Sequence record: MT446412.1
DNA from: Escherichia virus TH41
Strand: one strand, 5' to 3'
DNA: 64,000 bases
The notes beneath the pieces are model-generated. The model ran no database searches, was not told the origin of the DNA, and was given only the letters and a program-made list of their open reading frames with translations. How positions within the stretch are numbered: the stretch's first letter is position 1; each line of letters starts with the position of its first letter. Made by a program: the position numbers and the translations under genes. Positions 37,836 through 46,904 of the stretch are shown here, one piece after another.

Positions 37836-37843
37836 TATAAATA
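37836..37843 (+). promoter_or_regulatory. Late promoter box TATAAATA upstream of ORF 37875
   Basis: Exact TATAAATA on plus strand 32 bp upstream of the ATG. Confidence 0.45.
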
Positions 37844-41649: not shown

Positions 41650-41983
41650 ACCAGAAAAATTTGTATACGCAGACAAGATTGATAAAGACCTTATGCCTCC
41701 ATTTGGAGCTTTGTCCATGTGCATCGTTGGGGTTATAATGATGGTGCTTTGTGGGGATATGAATATCATTAGTGTTGGAGTCGCCTGGTCACTAATAATT
41801 GCAGCACCTTTTATTACAGTCCTGAGCATGATATTGATAAATGTGTGGCATCAAAATCATATGAATAAAGGATATCGTGGGCGAGTTAAAGAGTGGGAAC
41901 AAAAATGCGTTTCCCTGCAAGAAGAGCACAAAATTAAATGTGCCGAAGAATTTATTAAGGAGGTTCGTAATGGAACGGCCTAG
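41624..41983 (+). CDS. Membrane protein (119 aa)
   Basis: Two hydrophobic segments; start placed at internal ATG MRTLYLPSK. Confidence 0.45.
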   Translation: MRTLYLPSKPEKFVYADKIDKDLMPPFGALSMCIVGVIMMVLCGDMNIISVGVAWSLIIAAPFITVLSMILINVWHQNHMNKGYRGRVKEWEQKCVSLQEEHKIKCAEEFIKEVRNGTA

Positions 41984-42323
41984 TCTTGCATCACATGTTT
42001 ATCAATTGGCTGAATATGATATTGGTGCCAATTTATTATTAGGGATTGTCACCGCCATGCTTGGTGGTTTGGTTGGTCTGGTAATGACCACGGTTATGGC
42101 TGCAATCGAGGGAGTCATGCCCATTGAGATGGGTTTCTTTATGATAATCGCTCCGGCTGTTGTGTCTTATTTTATCCCTGTTGTGTATGATATCTGTCAC
42201 ACAAATGCAGTGAATGCTCCTAGTCGGAAGAGATATGGTTCAGCAATGGCTGAGTATAATAAGTTCCTGAACAAAACAAAACGTAATGAACTTGAAACCT
42301 TTATTAAGGAATGTAAATCATGA
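41970..42323 (+). CDS. Membrane protein (117 aa) with C-terminal FIKECK motif
   Basis: Hydrophobic segments; C-terminus ...KRNELETFIKECKS. Confidence 0.5.
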   Translation: MERPSLASHVYQLAEYDIGANLLLGIVTAMLGGLVGLVMTTVMAAIEGVMPIEMGFFMIIAPAVVSYFIPVVYDICHTNAVNAPSRKRYGSAMAEYNKFLNKTKRNELETFIKECKS

Positions 42324-42610
42324 ATAAAATTGAAATTGCTATCCCCAAGTATTATGATGAGAAATCTGCAGAAAAAGCTATCTATTCTCTTCTAAATAAG
42401 ACCTCTGAAATTGAAAAACACTGTGAAGAAATCGCAGATGAATATGGTATCGAATTCAGCACTGGTGATTACGGCACCGGCCGTACATATCACCCAGTCG
42501 GTTATGAATGTTCCGAATGGTTCGCTCACCATATTGAAAACAACGGCGGACAAGTTGAAAACGGCATTGTTACTGTTGGTGCCTGGGTTTCCTCTTCTGA
42601 GGTGTGCTAA
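42320..42610 (+). CDS. Small protein, W-x-SS-x-x-C family member 1 (96 aa)
   Basis: C-terminus ...VGAWVSSSEVC; ATGA overlap with upstream gene. Confidence 0.55.
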   Translation: MNKIEIAIPKYYDEKSAEKAIYSLLNKTSEIEKHCEEIADEYGIEFSTGDYGTGRTYHPVGYECSEWFAHHIENNGGQVENGIVTVGAWVSSSEVC

Positions 42611-42611
42611 T

Positions 42612-42893
42612 ATGATGAATGATTACCGTAAAAATAAAGAACTGGCTAACGCAGTAAATGACATCCATAAAGCTATTCGTCGTGCTGAGGAAATTGCAAA
42701 CAAATATGAGACTCATTTTAATATATACCCTGCTCGCGGTATGGGCGGTGACTATTATTCTCCTGGCGCCCTGAAAGCTGACCTTGCTCATTGGGAAGAA
42801 CATGGTCATCCTGAATGGGCTATTGTTAATACTCATGACTATACAACTGACCTGGAAAAAGGCGGTTGGGTGTCCTCCTCTTCTGAATGTTAA
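42612..42893 (+). CDS. Small protein, W-x-SS-x-x-C family member 2 (93 aa)
   Basis: Start placed at ATG directly after previous stop; C-terminus ...GGWVSSSSEC. Confidence 0.55.
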   Translation: MMNDYRKNKELANAVNDIHKAIRRAEEIANKYETHFNIYPARGMGGDYYSPGALKADLAHWEEHGHPEWAIVNTHDYTTDLEKGGWVSSSSEC

Positions 42894-42902
42894 GGAACTA
42901 TT

Positions 42903-43100
42903 ATGTCTCGTGAACTAGATTGTGCAATCCGTACTGCCGCGGCAGCTATTGAAAACGTTATCCAGATTTGTAAAGAAGAGCGTGAAGAAGCTGATATCTA
43001 TATCGATGGTGTTCGTGACCTAGAACGACATATCACGCTTTATAATGGTTGTATTACTATTAGTGGTACCTCTTGGGTGTCCTCCTCTTACGAATGCTAA
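42903..43100 (+). CDS. Small protein, W-x-SS-x-x-C family member 3 (65 aa)
   Basis: C-terminus ...GTSWVSSSYEC; AAGGAA SD. Confidence 0.55.
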   Translation: MSRELDCAIRTAAAAIENVIQICKEEREEADIYIDGVRDLERHITLYNGCITISGTSWVSSSYEC

Positions 43101-43109
43101 GGAAATAAA

Positions 43110-43328
43110 ATGACTGCTAAAACTGTTAAAGAAATTGAAGACCAAATCCGTGCACTAATCTGTGAAGGTGAACAACTGGCCGATAAAACCGGCGAACACT
43201 TCCGTAGCGGTGGCGAAGAATATATTCCAGCTTCTAGTCCGGAATATAACGATTATGAATGGGTTCGTGACGAATATTGTATTCCAGAAGGTGAAGGTTT
43301 CTGGTTTAACTCCTCTATGTCTTGCTAA
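43110..43328 (+). CDS. Small protein, W-x-SS-x-x-C family member 4 (72 aa)
   Basis: C-terminus ...GFWFNSSMSC; AAGGAA SD. Confidence 0.5.
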   Translation: MTAKTVKEIEDQIRALICEGEQLADKTGEHFRSGGEEYIPASSPEYNDYEWVRDEYCIPEGEGFWFNSSMSC

Positions 43329-43337
43329 GGTGATAAA

Positions 43338-43571
43338 ATGACTACTGCTGTTGAACATGCTGAATTAGAAAAAGCTGCCCTTGAACTGGCTGCACTGTAT
43401 AAGAAAGTAAAAGATATGGCTTTTGCTCAAGATTTCGGTGTTGAGCTTGATGATTATGACGGCGAAGTCCGTCTTGAAGACTGGTTGAACAGTTCTTGTT
43501 ATGGTGAAGAAGCTGGTCGTACCTTCGTTGCTCGTGCCGATGGTAAAATCTGGTACCCAAGTTCATGTTAA
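43338..43571 (+). CDS. Small protein, W-x-SS-x-x-C family member 5 (77 aa)
   Basis: C-terminus ...KIWYPSSC; AAGGTG SD. Confidence 0.5.
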   Translation: MTTAVEHAELEKAALELAALYKKVKDMAFAQDFGVELDDYDGEVRLEDWLNSSCYGEEAGRTFVARADGKIWYPSSC

Positions 43572-43792
43572 AATTGAAAAAACGATACATTCGTAAAATA
43601 AATGGTCTTCGCGATTATGCCAAAGGTTGGCCATTAAATCTTATTATGGCTGATAGACATCCACGTTACAATACCGAGTTGACTTATTACAAAAAGTATG
43701 ATTCGTATTGTCGGTCTAAAGCGGGTCGTTTAGATGGTTCCTATGAAGAATATTTCGGTAAAAAACCTACTCGCATTTCGTTAGGAAAATAA
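43565..43792 (+). CDS. Hypothetical basic protein (75 aa)
   Basis: ORF overlapping the upstream stop; Lys/Arg/Tyr-rich. Confidence 0.4.
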   Translation: MLKLKKRYIRKINGLRDYAKGWPLNLIMADRHPRYNTELTYYKKYDSYCRSKAGRLDGSYEEYFGKKPTRISLGK

Positions 43793-43823
43793 TTTAATCA
43801 CAAGGATGTGATAGGAGGACTTT

Positions 43824-44153
43824 GTGCATAAAGATTCAGTATTCAAATATCTTTTGAAAACAGATAAAGAATTCTATATGAATGGGCAAGCTTTCTTGTT
43901 CGTTCGCGGTAAACGTGAGATGTTTTACAAATGCGACCTCTCAATGCATCATCATATGTATCATACCCACGGTGAGTTTATACTGGGGTTCTCTGGTGAC
44001 GAAACCAGACATATAGCTATGTACTACGACCATTTTAAGCTCAATGATTGCGGTGACAACGCTCTGGTCTGGAATCCATCTTGGCGTCGTTGGGATAAGG
44101 TAGACAACGATAAATTATTTTTAGAATATTGTAGAAGCAGTATACAAGTCTAA
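43824..44153 (+). CDS. Hypothetical His-rich protein (109 aa), apparent GTG start
   Basis: ATAGGAGGA SD 4 nt before GTG; HHHMYHTH motif. Confidence 0.4.
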   Translation: MHKDSVFKYLLKTDKEFYMNGQAFLFVRGKREMFYKCDLSMHHHMYHTHGEFILGFSGDETRHIAMYYDHFKLNDCGDNALVWNPSWRRWDKVDNDKLFLEYCRSSIQV

Positions 44154-44217
44154 AAAACTGTGTTACTATACTCCTATCAACTGATGACAATCACGTTATC
44201 AGAACAGGAGAATAAAA

Positions 44218-44418
44218 ATGTCTATCGCAAACGAATTAATCAAAGTTCTGAACGAAGCCAAAGTCAACCAACTGGAGGTTAATCTCCAGGAAGTTTCTGA
44301 TGGCATTAAAGTAACCATCAGTGGTGATTACGCAGGCGTCACAGAACGTGTTTGTGATTCTCTGGAAGAAGTAGTTTCCTGCATTAAAAGAGATATTTAC
44401 GCATACGGTATTATTTGA
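44218..44418 (+). CDS. Hypothetical protein (66 aa)
   Basis: AGGAG SD; promoter-like cassette upstream. Confidence 0.5.
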   Translation: MSIANELIKVLNEAKVNQLEVNLQEVSDGIKVTISGDYAGVTERVCDSLEEVVSCIKRDIYAYGII

Positions 44419-44428
44419 GGAAAATATT

Positions 44429-44596
44429 ATGTATAATGTTCTTATTGTTTTTGTCACTCACCCGCAAGGTGGAGTAAGACAGAATACTTCTCAAGTGGTT
44501 CAATTTTCTTCACTAGAGGCCGCCAATCTTGCTGCCTCACGAATTGAAGCGAAAAAATCTGAACTAGGTAAATATGAAGTAACTCGTCTTTATTAA
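44429..44596 (+). CDS. Hypothetical small protein (55 aa, below ORF-track cutoff)
   Basis: ATG after GAGGAAAA SD; fills an otherwise empty gap between genes. Confidence 0.35.
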   Translation: MYNVLIVFVTHPQGGVRQNTSQVVQFSSLEAANLAASRIEAKKSELGKYEVTRLY

Positions 44597-44611: not shown

Positions 44612-45571
44612 ATGATGTTAGTTATTGGTTCTCGTGCATTGCATAACGCTGGTCTGATTGAAAGTCAGAAAATTGAAAATTCTGATTGGGACTTTATCGC
44701 TGACCAAGGTTCTTGGAACCACTTTAAAGCACGTATGTTCGGTGCTCATGTTCCTGTGGATAACCCTAACGTCCAAGCTTTTAAATGTATGTACAATGGC
44801 AAAGAAACCTATTTTGAAGCTTATATTGTCCGTGCCCTGACCAACGTACGAGAAATTACTGGTGAGCTTCAAGACGAAGATTTCACCTCAAGTTATCGTC
44901 TCCTGAAATATGCTGAAAATCATATTAAAAAAGATCGTCTTACAGGTTTTTACTGGGCAACTCCTGATATTTGTCTGGCAATTAAATTATCTCATCGTTA
45001 CCTGAAGAACAATCCATTCTTCCTGAAGACCATGAGTCATATTAATTACCTTCGCAATAAGGGTGTTGTTCTTAATGATGAACTGCAGAAAATCATGTTG
45101 CAGCGTCAGGCAGAAACACTGTCATACAGCCACCCTAAACTAGACGTGGGCAAGAAAACTTTCTTTAATGATACAATCTATACCCTTGACCATGACTCCA
45201 TCCACGAGGCTGTGGCGCTTGCTGATAAGCCTGCATATAAGTTCTATATGAAGGATGATTCAGAAGTCATGACCTCACGTGAAAAATTTGAAGCACTCCC
45301 TGATGTTATTAAACTGGCAGGGGTTTATGAAGAAGCATGTGTGCTTGCTCTGGAGCGTTCGCAGGTTCCAAATGAGTTCAATATCTCTCCATCCGTGAGC
45401 TTCCATATTGCGCTGGAAAAAGTCTGCACCTCCATTACTTCTGGATGGTTCCGTGAGTATGCCTGGGAACATTACCAGGAAGTGGTTAATATGTATAACA
45501 CTCTGGGGCGCGAAGACTATGTTAAACGCTTCAAGGCTAACCAACATTTAATTCGTCCTTTCACAAAATAA
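44612..45571 (+). CDS. Pol-beta-type nucleotidyltransferase-like protein (319 aa)
   Basis: N-terminal VIGSRALHNAG...ENSDWDFI resembles the GS-x(n)-SD-h-D-h nucleotidyltransferase motif. Confidence 0.45.
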   Translation: MMLVIGSRALHNAGLIESQKIENSDWDFIADQGSWNHFKARMFGAHVPVDNPNVQAFKCMYNGKETYFEAYIVRALTNVREITGELQDEDFTSSYRLLKYAENHIKKDRLTGFYWATPDICLAIKLSHRYLKNNPFFLKTMSHINYLRNKGVVLNDELQKIMLQRQAETLSYSHPKLDVGKKTFFNDTIYTLDHDSIHEAVALADKPAYKFYMKDDSEVMTSREKFEALPDVIKLAGVYEEACVLALERSQVPNEFNISPSVSFHIALEKVCTSITSGWFREYAWEHYQEVVNMYNTLGREDYVKRFKANQHLIRPFTK

Positions 45572-45630: not shown

Positions 45631-46317
45631 ATGAACAGTCCAAAAACTTTTAATTCTCAAGCTCGTGCAGTAGGCGGTTTCGCTGGTAAAATTTCTAATG
45701 ATAAAATCAAAAACGAAACTATGTTCTTCAACAGCTCATTGGCTTTCGCTTTTGACAATGGCGGTCCTATTACTCGCAGCTTTATCATGAACCTGCCGGA
45801 TGATTGGAACACTGACCAGGTTGTATTTGATTCTCGGGTTCATATGTTGATGCCTGGTTGGTATCCTGCTATCCCTGGGTATCACCATGATGATGTGCCA
45901 CGCCCGGATATTCCGGTTGGTCAACACTTTATTACTGCAGGGCAACCTGATTATGATAATCCTCGTTACCATTCTGAACATATTCTTGGTCTTGTTAACG
46001 CCGATGTGTGTCCTACTTATTTTGCAACCGGAACTGCGCAATTTAGTCAGATTCCTGAAGGCGAACTTATCTATCGCCAGTGGCATAAAGAAGTTCTGGA
46101 AAAAATTGAGTCCAATGAATTAACCAAGTGGGATGCTCCTGACCGCACGTTGCTCCAGTTTGATTGGCAGACATGGCATACAGGTTCTCGCGCAGTAAGT
46201 AATGGTTGGCGCTGGTTTGGTCGTGTGTCTCGTAATACCGACCGTGTTAAAAAGATTACAAATGAAATCCGCGTTAATGCTCAAGTATATCTGGAATTCC
46301 CTATGGAGGGCTGGTAA
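45631..46317 (+). CDS. Hypothetical protein (228 aa)
   Basis: GAGGAAAA SD; His/Asp-rich central region (GYHHDDVPRPD); no confident domain call. Confidence 0.5.
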   Translation: MNSPKTFNSQARAVGGFAGKISNDKIKNETMFFNSSLAFAFDNGGPITRSFIMNLPDDWNTDQVVFDSRVHMLMPGWYPAIPGYHHDDVPRPDIPVGQHFITAGQPDYDNPRYHSEHILGLVNADVCPTYFATGTAQFSQIPEGELIYRQWHKEVLEKIESNELTKWDAPDRTLLQFDWQTWHTGSRAVSNGWRWFGRVSRNTDRVKKITNEIRVNAQVYLEFPMEGW

Positions 46318-46904
46318 TGGCCCTTTATGAACCCGGTTGTATGGGTGTTGATGTAAACTTCATCCGCCGGGCAGAAAATGCAGGTATAATTGTATCAAGA
46401 GATGAATTTATGATTACCAAAAAATATTGGGCGAACCTTGATGATGGTGATGAAGGAATCAAGGTGGAAAATGTTGATTGGTCGCGATGCAATCGTCATG
46501 TGAAAGAGCTTTTAATTAAGGAATATAAAATGGGATACATCATTAACGGACATCAACCAGAACCACTCAAAGAACAGACACCCGACCCATTAATTTCTTA
46601 TAGCAAGAAATATGGATTTCGTACCTGGAGTGATGAATTTGATAAGTTAATTTGTTCCAGGTTTTATGCCTGGTCTGGAATCTTATTTTTACCATTCCTG
46701 TGGTTTTTCCTGACAGGTAAAAATGAAGCACCTGTAGCTGTAATGGGCGCGTGCTTTTCTACTGCTCTTGCTGGACTTATTGCATCATTTTTATGGACTA
46801 TGGTTATTGAAGTACCTTTTCGTATTTCTAAAGTTAAAAAGGTATATGACGATATCACTAAGAAAAATACATTGAACTCTTTTATTGAGGAATGCCGTAA
46901 ATGA
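46317..46904 (+). CDS. Membrane protein (195 aa) with C-terminal FIEECRK motif
   Basis: Hydrophobic segments in C-terminal half; C-terminus ...KKNTLNSFIEECRK. Confidence 0.5.
   Translation: MALYEPGCMGVDVNFIRRAENAGIIVSRDEFMITKKYWANLDDGDEGIKVENVDWSRCNRHVKELLIKEYKMGYIINGHQPEPLKEQTPDPLISYSKKYGFRTWSDEFDKLICSRFYAWSGILFLPFLWFFLTGKNEAPVAVMGACFSTALAGLIASFLWTMVIEVPFRISKVKKVYDDITKKNTLNSFIEECRK

Follow-up and report, generated by a model that had tools for sequence, protein, structure and literature searches.

Why should five adjacent small genes of a bacteriophage all end in nearly the same residues, and what might such an ending serve? The question is raised by an array of five open reading frames (ORF1 to ORF5) in a 64,000-nt stretch of Escherichia virus TH41 (sequence record MT446412.1; hereafter the window), which represents a T4-like phage (Gaprivervirus/Dhakavirus). 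An initial examination of the letters alone, here called the sequence-only reading, had described five back-to-back ORFs of 65-96 aa, separated by 1-9 nt and each preceded by its own Shine-Dalgarno (SD) sequence, whose products share a C-terminal tail. The coordinates, gaps and SD sequences were checked and agree with this description, and the five C-termini read exactly as claimed (Table 1). Here we report that the tail marks a family of small acidic phage proteins whose genes are linked to that of a protein with the nucleotidyltransferase (NTase) fold, and consider the possibility that this enzyme modifies the tail.

Translation of the window in six frames gives six copies of the motif W-x-x-S-S-x(0-3)-C, all within the array, and five of the copies are located directly before a stop codon (W-x-x-S-S-x(0-2)-C-stop). 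Block-wise shuffles of the window gave a mean of 1.21 motifs and of 0.08 motifs followed by a stop, with a maximum of 2. The sixth copy (WLNSSC), which the sequence-only reading had missed, is internal to ORF5. To define the family, a member was required to be a stand-alone small protein (about 50-125 aa) in which W-x-x-S-[SN]-x(0-3)-C is terminal or followed by a single residue; all five window ORFs have both this size and this ending. About 90 loci yielded 195 distinct tail-ending ORFs, represented by 95 sequences below 70% identity. None of these representatives varies at the W, at the S at +3 or at the terminal C, position +4 admits S (88 sequences), N (6) and T (1), and the W and C are separated by six residues in 71 and by four in 18. 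The bodies have diverged to 20-30% identity, the median pI is 4.36, and the terminal Cys is the sole Cys in 44 of the 95. Since two spacings, with C at +5 or +7 from W, coexist in a single array, the constant element is W-x-x-S-S.

The element is not confined to the C-terminus. In family members, internal W-x-S-S was observed 21 times where 0.56 would be expected (about 40-fold over chance), and for internal W-x(1-2)-SS-x(0-2)-C the counts are 16 observed and 0.02 expected; as many as three motif copies occur in some of the proteins, and 16 of about 25 internal copies include a Cys. Proteins of the ORF5 subtype always combine D-W-x-S-S-x-C-Y-G-E with a terminal copy, in T4-like (including Karamvirus), Aeromonas and Phapecoctavirus phages alike. 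These sequence patterns identify W-x-x-S-S...C as a selected, portable unit and support the view of a shared, selected tail on diversified bodies.

To avoid circularity through the tail, it was removed from the orthologue alignments before profile-profile comparison with hhalign. The trimmed ORF1 profile matched those of ORF2 (96%, E 3e-9) and ORF4 (95.5%, E 1.5e-8), and ORF2 matched ORF4 (73%). ORF5 gave marginal values against the others (22% and 4%), while the body of ORF3 had no significant match to the other four, and in BLASTP only the last 18 aa of ORF3 aligned with ORF1. The domain common to ORF1, ORF2 and ORF4 comprises a long helix ending in ...IADExGxxF, followed by G-x-Y-G-x-G-x-T-Y-Y-P. 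ORF1 is a canonical member, with the N-terminal helix, a GDYGTGRTYHP loop and the tail, and in ORF2 the terminal Cys is the sole Cys. As judged from these comparisons, ORF3 and ORF5 appear to be tied to the rest mainly through the tail and through their constant co-occurrence in the same arrays. The N-terminal regions had been described as divergent, which holds for ORF3, where relatedness is undetectable, and in a marginal form for ORF5, but not for ORF1, ORF2 and ORF4, which remain homologous after trimming. Likewise, of the proposal that a shared modification, docking or metal-binding tail is carried on variable specificity domains, the selected tail has stood and has gained a candidate partner enzyme (see below), whereas the bodies of ORF1, ORF2 and ORF4 represent a conserved domain.

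ORF1 (E 1.3e-21), ORF2 (8.9e-20), ORF4 (2.1e-11) and ORF5 (6.5e-9) matched phrog_899 and ORF3 (2.4e-36) matched phrog_4882, both catalogued under 'unknown function', and the five proteins had no match in Pfam (hence none to HEPN), NCBIfam, PADLOC or among PDB sequences. The family that the sequence-only reading did not recognise had thus been catalogued, with no function known, and the profile searches neither bore out a chance resemblance between unrelated proteins nor led to a well-characterised family. When 1.84 billion cluster representatives were searched exhaustively with HMMER, only 66 matches were obtained, all stand-alone proteins of 71-121 aa except for one spurious match to a 1929-aa coiled-coil protein, and no credible fusion or longer homologue that could provide domain context was found. 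Three of the 66 had been collected before; among the 63 newly retrieved matches, 58 end in the motif, two have one residue past the Cys and two are truncated. In the collected loci, members are about 50-125 aa long, acidic and stand-alone, and all five genes of the array are kept as ORFs in dozens of phages.

Some public records of the family deserve comment. In GenBank PQ341120 (phage EAWsc9) the array genes and a neighbouring ORF bear the names 'malate synthase', 'transposase', 'CAZy families GH13 protein' and 'Ig-like domain-containing protein', which we judge to be spurious and which no search supports; the one name that fits our results is 'nucleotidyltransferase', given to the 319-aa gene. 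In RB69, the annotation divides the ORF1 orthologue between two overlapping ORFs, RB69ORF139c and RB69ORF138c (locus L002, 4001-4307), and tblastn covers it only in two pieces, so that the gene is frameshifted (a pseudogene) or the record contains a sequencing error. T4 Tk.1 (L003, 2350-2550, minus strand) shows a weak local match, LSFEISSEYGDAETYY, to the family core F-x-l-x-l..YG.GgTYY (E 2e-4, a value from a set of about 500 ORFs) and has no W..SS..C tail.

The organization of the array itself is highly regular. An SD of the AAGGA or GAGGT type lies 7-9 nt upstream of all five ATGs, and the gaps from ORF1 to ORF5 are 1, 9, 9 and 9 nt. ORF2 truly starts at the ATG at 42612, the TTG at 42411 in the mechanical ORF list being an artefact. 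The stops of ORF2, ORF3 and ORF4 are embedded in the SD of the next gene, such that the Cys codon TG[CT] and TAA form TG[CT]TAAGG[AT]; these stereotyped ORF2/3, ORF3/4 and ORF4/5 junctions fit tandem duplication of a unit that included the junction. The ORF1 ATG overlaps the stop of the e.3-like gene (ATGA); at the other end of the array, the stop of ORF5 overlaps the start codon (ATG, 43565) of an ORF for a basic 75-aa protein. The array genes are translationally coupled to e.3 and to the small ORFs downstream.

A clue to the role of the tail comes from its neighbourhood. Downstream of the array, 1041 nt past the ORF5 stop, the window encodes a 319-aa protein with homologues in many phages, and the association between the two was surveyed in both directions, in 80 enzyme-anchored and 120 tail-pattern loci. 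The enzyme-anchored set consisted of 80 loci of about 11 kb on viral contigs, with homologues from 99% down to 39% identity, and spanned T4-like phages as well as phage contigs of about 150 kb and of more than 350 kb. In 74 of them one to five same-strand motif-ending ORFs lie upstream of the enzyme gene, and only two off-target motif ORFs occur elsewhere in the 80 loci. The number of copies, whose variation between phages the sequence-only reading had proposed to examine, is 0 in 6 loci, 1 in 12, 2 in 28, 3 in 12, 4 in 6 and 5 in 16. The stretch that separates the enzyme match from the nearest tail ORF upstream has a median length of 377 nt and a minimum of 19 nt, and in many other phages the enzyme follows within 19-90 nt. 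Of the six tail-less loci, one has almost no upstream sequence and one holds a frameshifted remnant of a tail gene (T4-like contig L032, 4439-4573; ...TIPWFESRYTSSC), which is intact (NEDGSVWYTSSC) in its close relatives L033 and L036.

In the opposite direction, the small-protein family lacks any conserved block of 7 or more columns, and a degenerate DNA pattern for W-x-S-S-S-x-x-C-TAA was used instead; it returned 120 loci, and 32 of these have an ORF matching the family hidden Markov model (HMM). The enzyme lies downstream in all 16 HMM-matched loci with at least 3 kb of downstream sequence and also in three further loci with plausible tail ORFs that the HMM missed (19 of 19 evaluable loci in all), as opposed to none of the 52 remaining non-family pattern matches. 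When the neighbours of the enzyme in 51 diverse loci were clustered by BLAST, the tail family was present in 45 and the next commonest family in 13; the tail family is the only neighbour of the enzyme conserved beyond T4-like synteny. A family member followed by an enzyme of about 300 aa is found in RB69, a Karamvirus, Aeromonas phage 25, AS-szw and the non-T4 Phapecoctavirus phiWec188. Tail proteins without the enzyme were not found among the evaluable loci of the pattern scan, whereas the enzyme does occur without tail proteins, as short versions in Streptomyces, Mycobacterium and Vibrio phages. This one-way dependence means that tail proteins need the enzyme, and the genetic link between the two is strong. 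The short DUF7275 enzymes are directly followed by ORFs of 111-121 aa, which have a similar C-terminal half (e.g. ..YYNSWDSSNWDGELVEV..) and no Pfam match, and which may be an alternative partner family.

The enzyme consists of a Pol-beta-type nucleotidyltransferase domain, DUF7277 (residues 2-101; 92.8 bits), and a highly conserved helical domain, DUF7275 (residues 120-305; 254.3 bits; Pfam cut-off 27). Residues G6, S7, D25, D27 and E69 are invariant in 44 diverse homologues and correspond to the hG[GS], [DE]h[DE]h and third-carboxylate signature of Pol-beta NTases; many DUF7275 residues are likewise invariant. The AlphaFold2 (AF2) model of the enzyme (pLDDT 92.1) contains the NTase core fold, and its closest structural neighbours are MenT1, ANT(2''), MenT3/4 and LnuA, which nucleotidylylate hydroxyls of small molecules or tRNA 3' ends. 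The enzyme looks catalytically competent. Structural comparison did not support an HD phosphohydrolase as the C-terminal domain. A Pfam scan at E <= 0.1 gave only DUF7275 and DUF7277 and so does not place the enzyme in DUF1814/AbiEii, and the PADLOC defence models produced one insignificant match (E 0.018). Homologues number 2061 in the protein collection (clusters at 90% identity) and are present in 731 of 50,697 deposited phage genomes, the hosts including Escherichia, Klebsiella, Acinetobacter, Pseudomonas and Aeromonas.

With the genetic link observed, we infer, as the leading yet still tentative reading, that the enzyme recognises the tail element and probably nucleotidylylates a Ser of variable small acidic effectors. 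The five genes are diversified copies of one phage family and form a two-component module with the downstream NTase-fold enzyme. The enzyme would bind W-x-x-S-S...C, the sole element common to all copies, in a physical interaction with the small proteins, and transfer a nucleotide-derived group (a nucleoside monophosphate, or phospho-X from a nucleoside diphosphate-X donor) to the Ser hydroxyl of this element. The divergent bodies might direct each copy to a different cellular target, and the role of the module would probably be host takeover or counter-defence. A precedent is provided by MntA, an MNT-type NTase that polyadenylylates its partner HepT by adding three AMPs to a Tyr (PMC7641770).

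Several observations weigh against this reading. The MenT toxins, which are the closest structural relatives of the enzyme, act on tRNA rather than on proteins (PMC10435456). Because 6 of the 80 enzyme loci and all sampled actinophage versions are tail-less, the enzyme needs an activity that is independent of the tail. In the window, the array and the enzyme gene have four unrelated small genes between them, and the invariance of the terminal Cys is unexplained by nucleotidylylation of Ser. Finally, the AF2 model of ORF1 is a compact folded domain (pLDDT 92.2) in which W89-V-S belongs to the last beta-strand and S92-V95 to a short helix, all at high confidence. The structure prediction that the sequence-only reading had proposed for the tail thus gives, for ORF1, a part of the fold and not a free peptide, and the tail may be a structural element rather than an accessible substrate.

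Comparison with known systems delimits the analogy. In HepT/MntA (type VII toxin-antitoxin), as here, a minimal NTase with GS...DxD is encoded next to a small partner protein. Unlike HepT, the partner here is not a HEPN RNase (R-x4-6-H), and the candidate acceptor is a Ser in the W-x-x-S-S...C end. The enzyme also differs from MntA in its large extra conserved domain DUF7275 and in having one to five diversified partners instead of one, and the module resides in lytic phages, not in cellular toxin-antitoxin loci, the modification being a conjecture. ANT(2'')-Ia and LnuA act on small molecules and lack both partner proteins and DUF7275. CitX and MdcG are NTase-superfamily enzymes that attach a nucleotide-derived prosthetic group through a phosphodiester to a Ser of CitD or MdcC, which are small (~100 aa) acidic acyl-carrier proteins encoded in the same cluster. 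Unlike them, the proteins studied here have no corresponding Pfam match and differ in fold and in the position of the acceptor Ser, so that the analogy is one of logic only.

A bolder form of the same idea, which we regard as rather doubtful, is a phage-specific tagging system in which the NTase would load a nucleotide, an oligonucleotide or another phospho-linked group on the Ser-Ser of a portable tag. The carriers of the tag would be small acidic effectors of a previously unseen fold, from a family able to expand, and modification of the tag would amount to a post-translational 'arming' of host-takeover or counter-defence proteins. A further reaction, for instance cross-linking or thiol-dependent transfer, might in that case involve the invariant Cys.

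Alternatively, the module could resemble a toxin-antitoxin system, in which a MenT-like RNA- or tRNA-modifying enzyme acts against host translation or in RNA repair and the small proteins dock onto it by their tails as inhibitors or regulators. We consider this unlikely, although in structure the enzyme is best matched by MenT1, MenT3 and MenT4, and although small genes lie upstream of the NTase gene as in MenAT1, where the MenT fold is blocked by a short antitoxin, MenA1 (PMC10435456). Being very acidic, the small proteins could, moreover, mimic nucleic acid, and RNA ligase genes are found near distant homologues of the enzyme: one to a few genes upstream in Streptomyces phage Sham (L088, 2410-3069) and roseophage DSS3_PM1 (L090, 1566-2546), and farther upstream, at a distance of about ten genes (~3 kb), in Aeromonas phage AS-szw (L007, 1-509). 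Such neighbours hint at an RNA-end function, as the MenT-like fold does. However, up to five divergent paralogues per phage with two or three motifs per protein are hard to reconcile with inhibition of a single enzyme, and the enzyme occurs in other phages without the small proteins. Multiple diversified copies and repeated motifs would fit clients of one enzyme better than inhibitors. Furthermore, MenAT enzymes belong to DUF1814, whereas the phage enzyme matches only DUF7277/DUF7275 in Pfam and not DUF1814/AbiEii, the likeness being structural only; MenT acts on tRNA acceptor ends; and the small proteins are encoded in arrays and show no similarity to MenA1, which is among the PDB sequences that the family profile fails to match.

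Another explanation would make the tail an autonomous site, binding a metal or cluster through the Cys residues of oligomers, acting as a redox thiol, or forming a ligand pocket together with the Gly/Tyr loop (for example in a nucleotide 'sponge'); the enzyme would then be linked indirectly, through the same pathway or regulon. The prediction of the tail as part of the ORF1 fold is compatible with such a site, as are the invariance of the Cys, frequently the only one in the protein, the long N-terminal helix, which could drive oligomerisation, and the ORF5 subtype, whose two motifs could pair two Cys residues in one chain. Phages are known to encode small proteins by which nucleotides of immune signalling are sequestered (e.g. 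PMC10680739). The predicted fold of ORF1 has no relative in the PDB, and no sequence or fold similarity to a solved member was detected for the known phage nucleotide sponges Acb2, Tad1 and Tad2. We judge this explanation quite unlikely.

Very improbable, in our view, is a cross-link in which the Ser is nucleotidylylated and eliminated to dehydroalanine and the Cys then adds to it, creating a lanthionine-like ring that locks the C-terminus. Ser-Ser...Cys with a C-terminal Cys does resemble the sites at which lanthionine or aminovinyl-cysteine (AviCys) rings form in ribosomally synthesized and post-translationally modified peptides (RiPPs), and the chemistry would explain the invariance of both Ser and Cys and the Cys in most internal copies. 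Yet the Ser-to-Cys spacing varies, the proteins are folded domains (as the ORF1 model indicates) and not leader-core peptides, and no Pfam family of dehydratases, cyclases or homo-oligomeric flavin-containing Cys decarboxylases (HFCD) was detected in ten neighbouring proteins. We know of no NTase-fold enzyme that catalyses such a cross-link. Lastly, that the five ORFs are unrelated or not genes at all, and their shared ending a chance or compositional artefact, is refuted by the five motif-plus-stop copies against 0.08 expected, the conservation of all five ORFs in dozens of phages, the matches of ORF1, ORF2, ORF4 and ORF5 to phrog_899 (E 1e-21 to 6e-9) and the motif endings of 58 of the 63 newly retrieved HMMER matches, even though, after trimming of the tail, the bodies of ORF3 and ORF5 can no longer be connected with those of the other ORFs.

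To return to the two-component module, its genomic setting is consistent with an accessory role. Over the 4 kb around the array, the sequence shares 93-95% identity with Escherichia phage P896 and Shigella phage SP18 (Gaprivervirus) and 85-88% with JS98-type phages. Here, as in the annotation of SP18 and RB69, the array is located between e.3 and e.2, whereas in T4 e.3 directly abuts e.2; the array and the genes following it therefore represent an insertion in a variable accessory region. Neither enzyme nor tail ORF was found in the scanned part of T4 (40-76 kb), which covers both sites at which relatives carry the module. In Aeromonas phage 25 the module occupies a different context, beside nrdD, and Phapecoctavirus, Otagovirus and Acinetobacter phages carry it as well, a distribution suggesting that it moves as a unit. 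The four small ORFs between the array and the enzyme (separate PHROGs 7065, 9796, 14244 and 20278) do not match the family HMM and are lineage-specific fillers rather than family members. The 228-aa protein encoded after the enzyme also follows it in RB69, AS-szw and Phapecoctavirus phiWec188; it was considered as a third core component and rejected, being present in only 23 of the 80 enzyme loci, and is better viewed as an occasional companion.

Table 1. Coordinates of the array, its neighbours in the window and related features in other loci (L numbers designate the collected loci; other positions refer to the window)
Feature	Position	Strand	Remarks
ORF1	42320-42610	+	96 aa, pI 4.6, end AWVSSSEVC
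ORF2	42612-42893	+	93 aa, end GWVSSSSEC
ORF3	42903-43100	+	65 aa, end SWVSSSYEC
ORF4	43110-43328	+	72 aa, end FWFNSSMSC
ORF5	43338-43571	+	77 aa, two-motif subtype: internal DWLNSSCYGE and terminal IWYPSSC
Internal second motif copy WLNSSC in ORF5	43482-43499	+	
Array junctions	42605-42614, 42888-42905, 43095-43112, 43323-43340		
e.3-like predicted membrane protein, upstream flank	41877-42323	+	phrog_2330
Four small ORFs between array and enzyme	43565-44596	+	75, 109, 66 and 55 aa
Partner enzyme	44612-45571	+	319 aa, DUF7277 + DUF7275; phrog_2141
228-aa protein after enzyme	45631-46317		phrog_1843, no Pfam match
e.2-like membrane protein, downstream flank	46317-46904	+	phrog_2203
ORFs after short DUF7275 enzymes	L088 4633-4968; L089 4609-4944; L093 4614-4979		111-121 aa; Streptomyces, Mycobacterium, Vibrio phage
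Misnamed array genes and neighbouring ORF	L214 2819-4062		GenBank PQ341120, phage EAWsc9

The time at which the array is expressed was approached through promoter motifs. A promoter scan performed no better than shuffles (28 vs 23.9). The T4 late-promoter motif TATAAATA occurs 17 times in the window against 5 expected, with all 12 copies below 21.5 kb on the minus strand (1394-21464) and all 5 copies above 30.7 kb on the plus strand (30752-54899). The plus strand has no copy between positions 37843 and 54892, and it is in this block that the array is located. The absence of a late promoter from this block, the translational coupling and the variability of the region between relatives are consistent with pre-late accessory genes, and the array genes may accordingly be of the host-takeover or counter-defence class. 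Such a location, together with the change from one to five copies between phages, is the reason why a role in host takeover or counter-defence seems probable.

The components of the module had been catalogued before, as phrog_899, phrog_4882, phrog_2141, DUF7277 and DUF7275, without function. Their linkage and the tail motif appear to be new, in that a description was found in no searchable paper; our search for these DUFs, PHROG identifiers, RB69 ORF names or such a module retrieved no paper, many subscription papers being outside its reach. As a class, the finding is that of an NTase with one or more cognate small protein partners whose fold has no solved relatives. With the two-way linkage and an element that is invariant and in part repeated, what were five anonymous ORFs become a concrete and cheaply testable case, in phages of a kind that is also represented in therapy collections. 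If the small proteins regulate a MenT-like RNA-modifying enzyme, a family of bacterial toxins would have in this module a counterpart carried by phages. If instead the enzyme tags proteins, it would constitute a new phage post-translational modification system with a new small-protein fold, for which there is no described phage equivalent, and would account for a block that recurs in T4-like genomes, in their hypervariable accessory regions.

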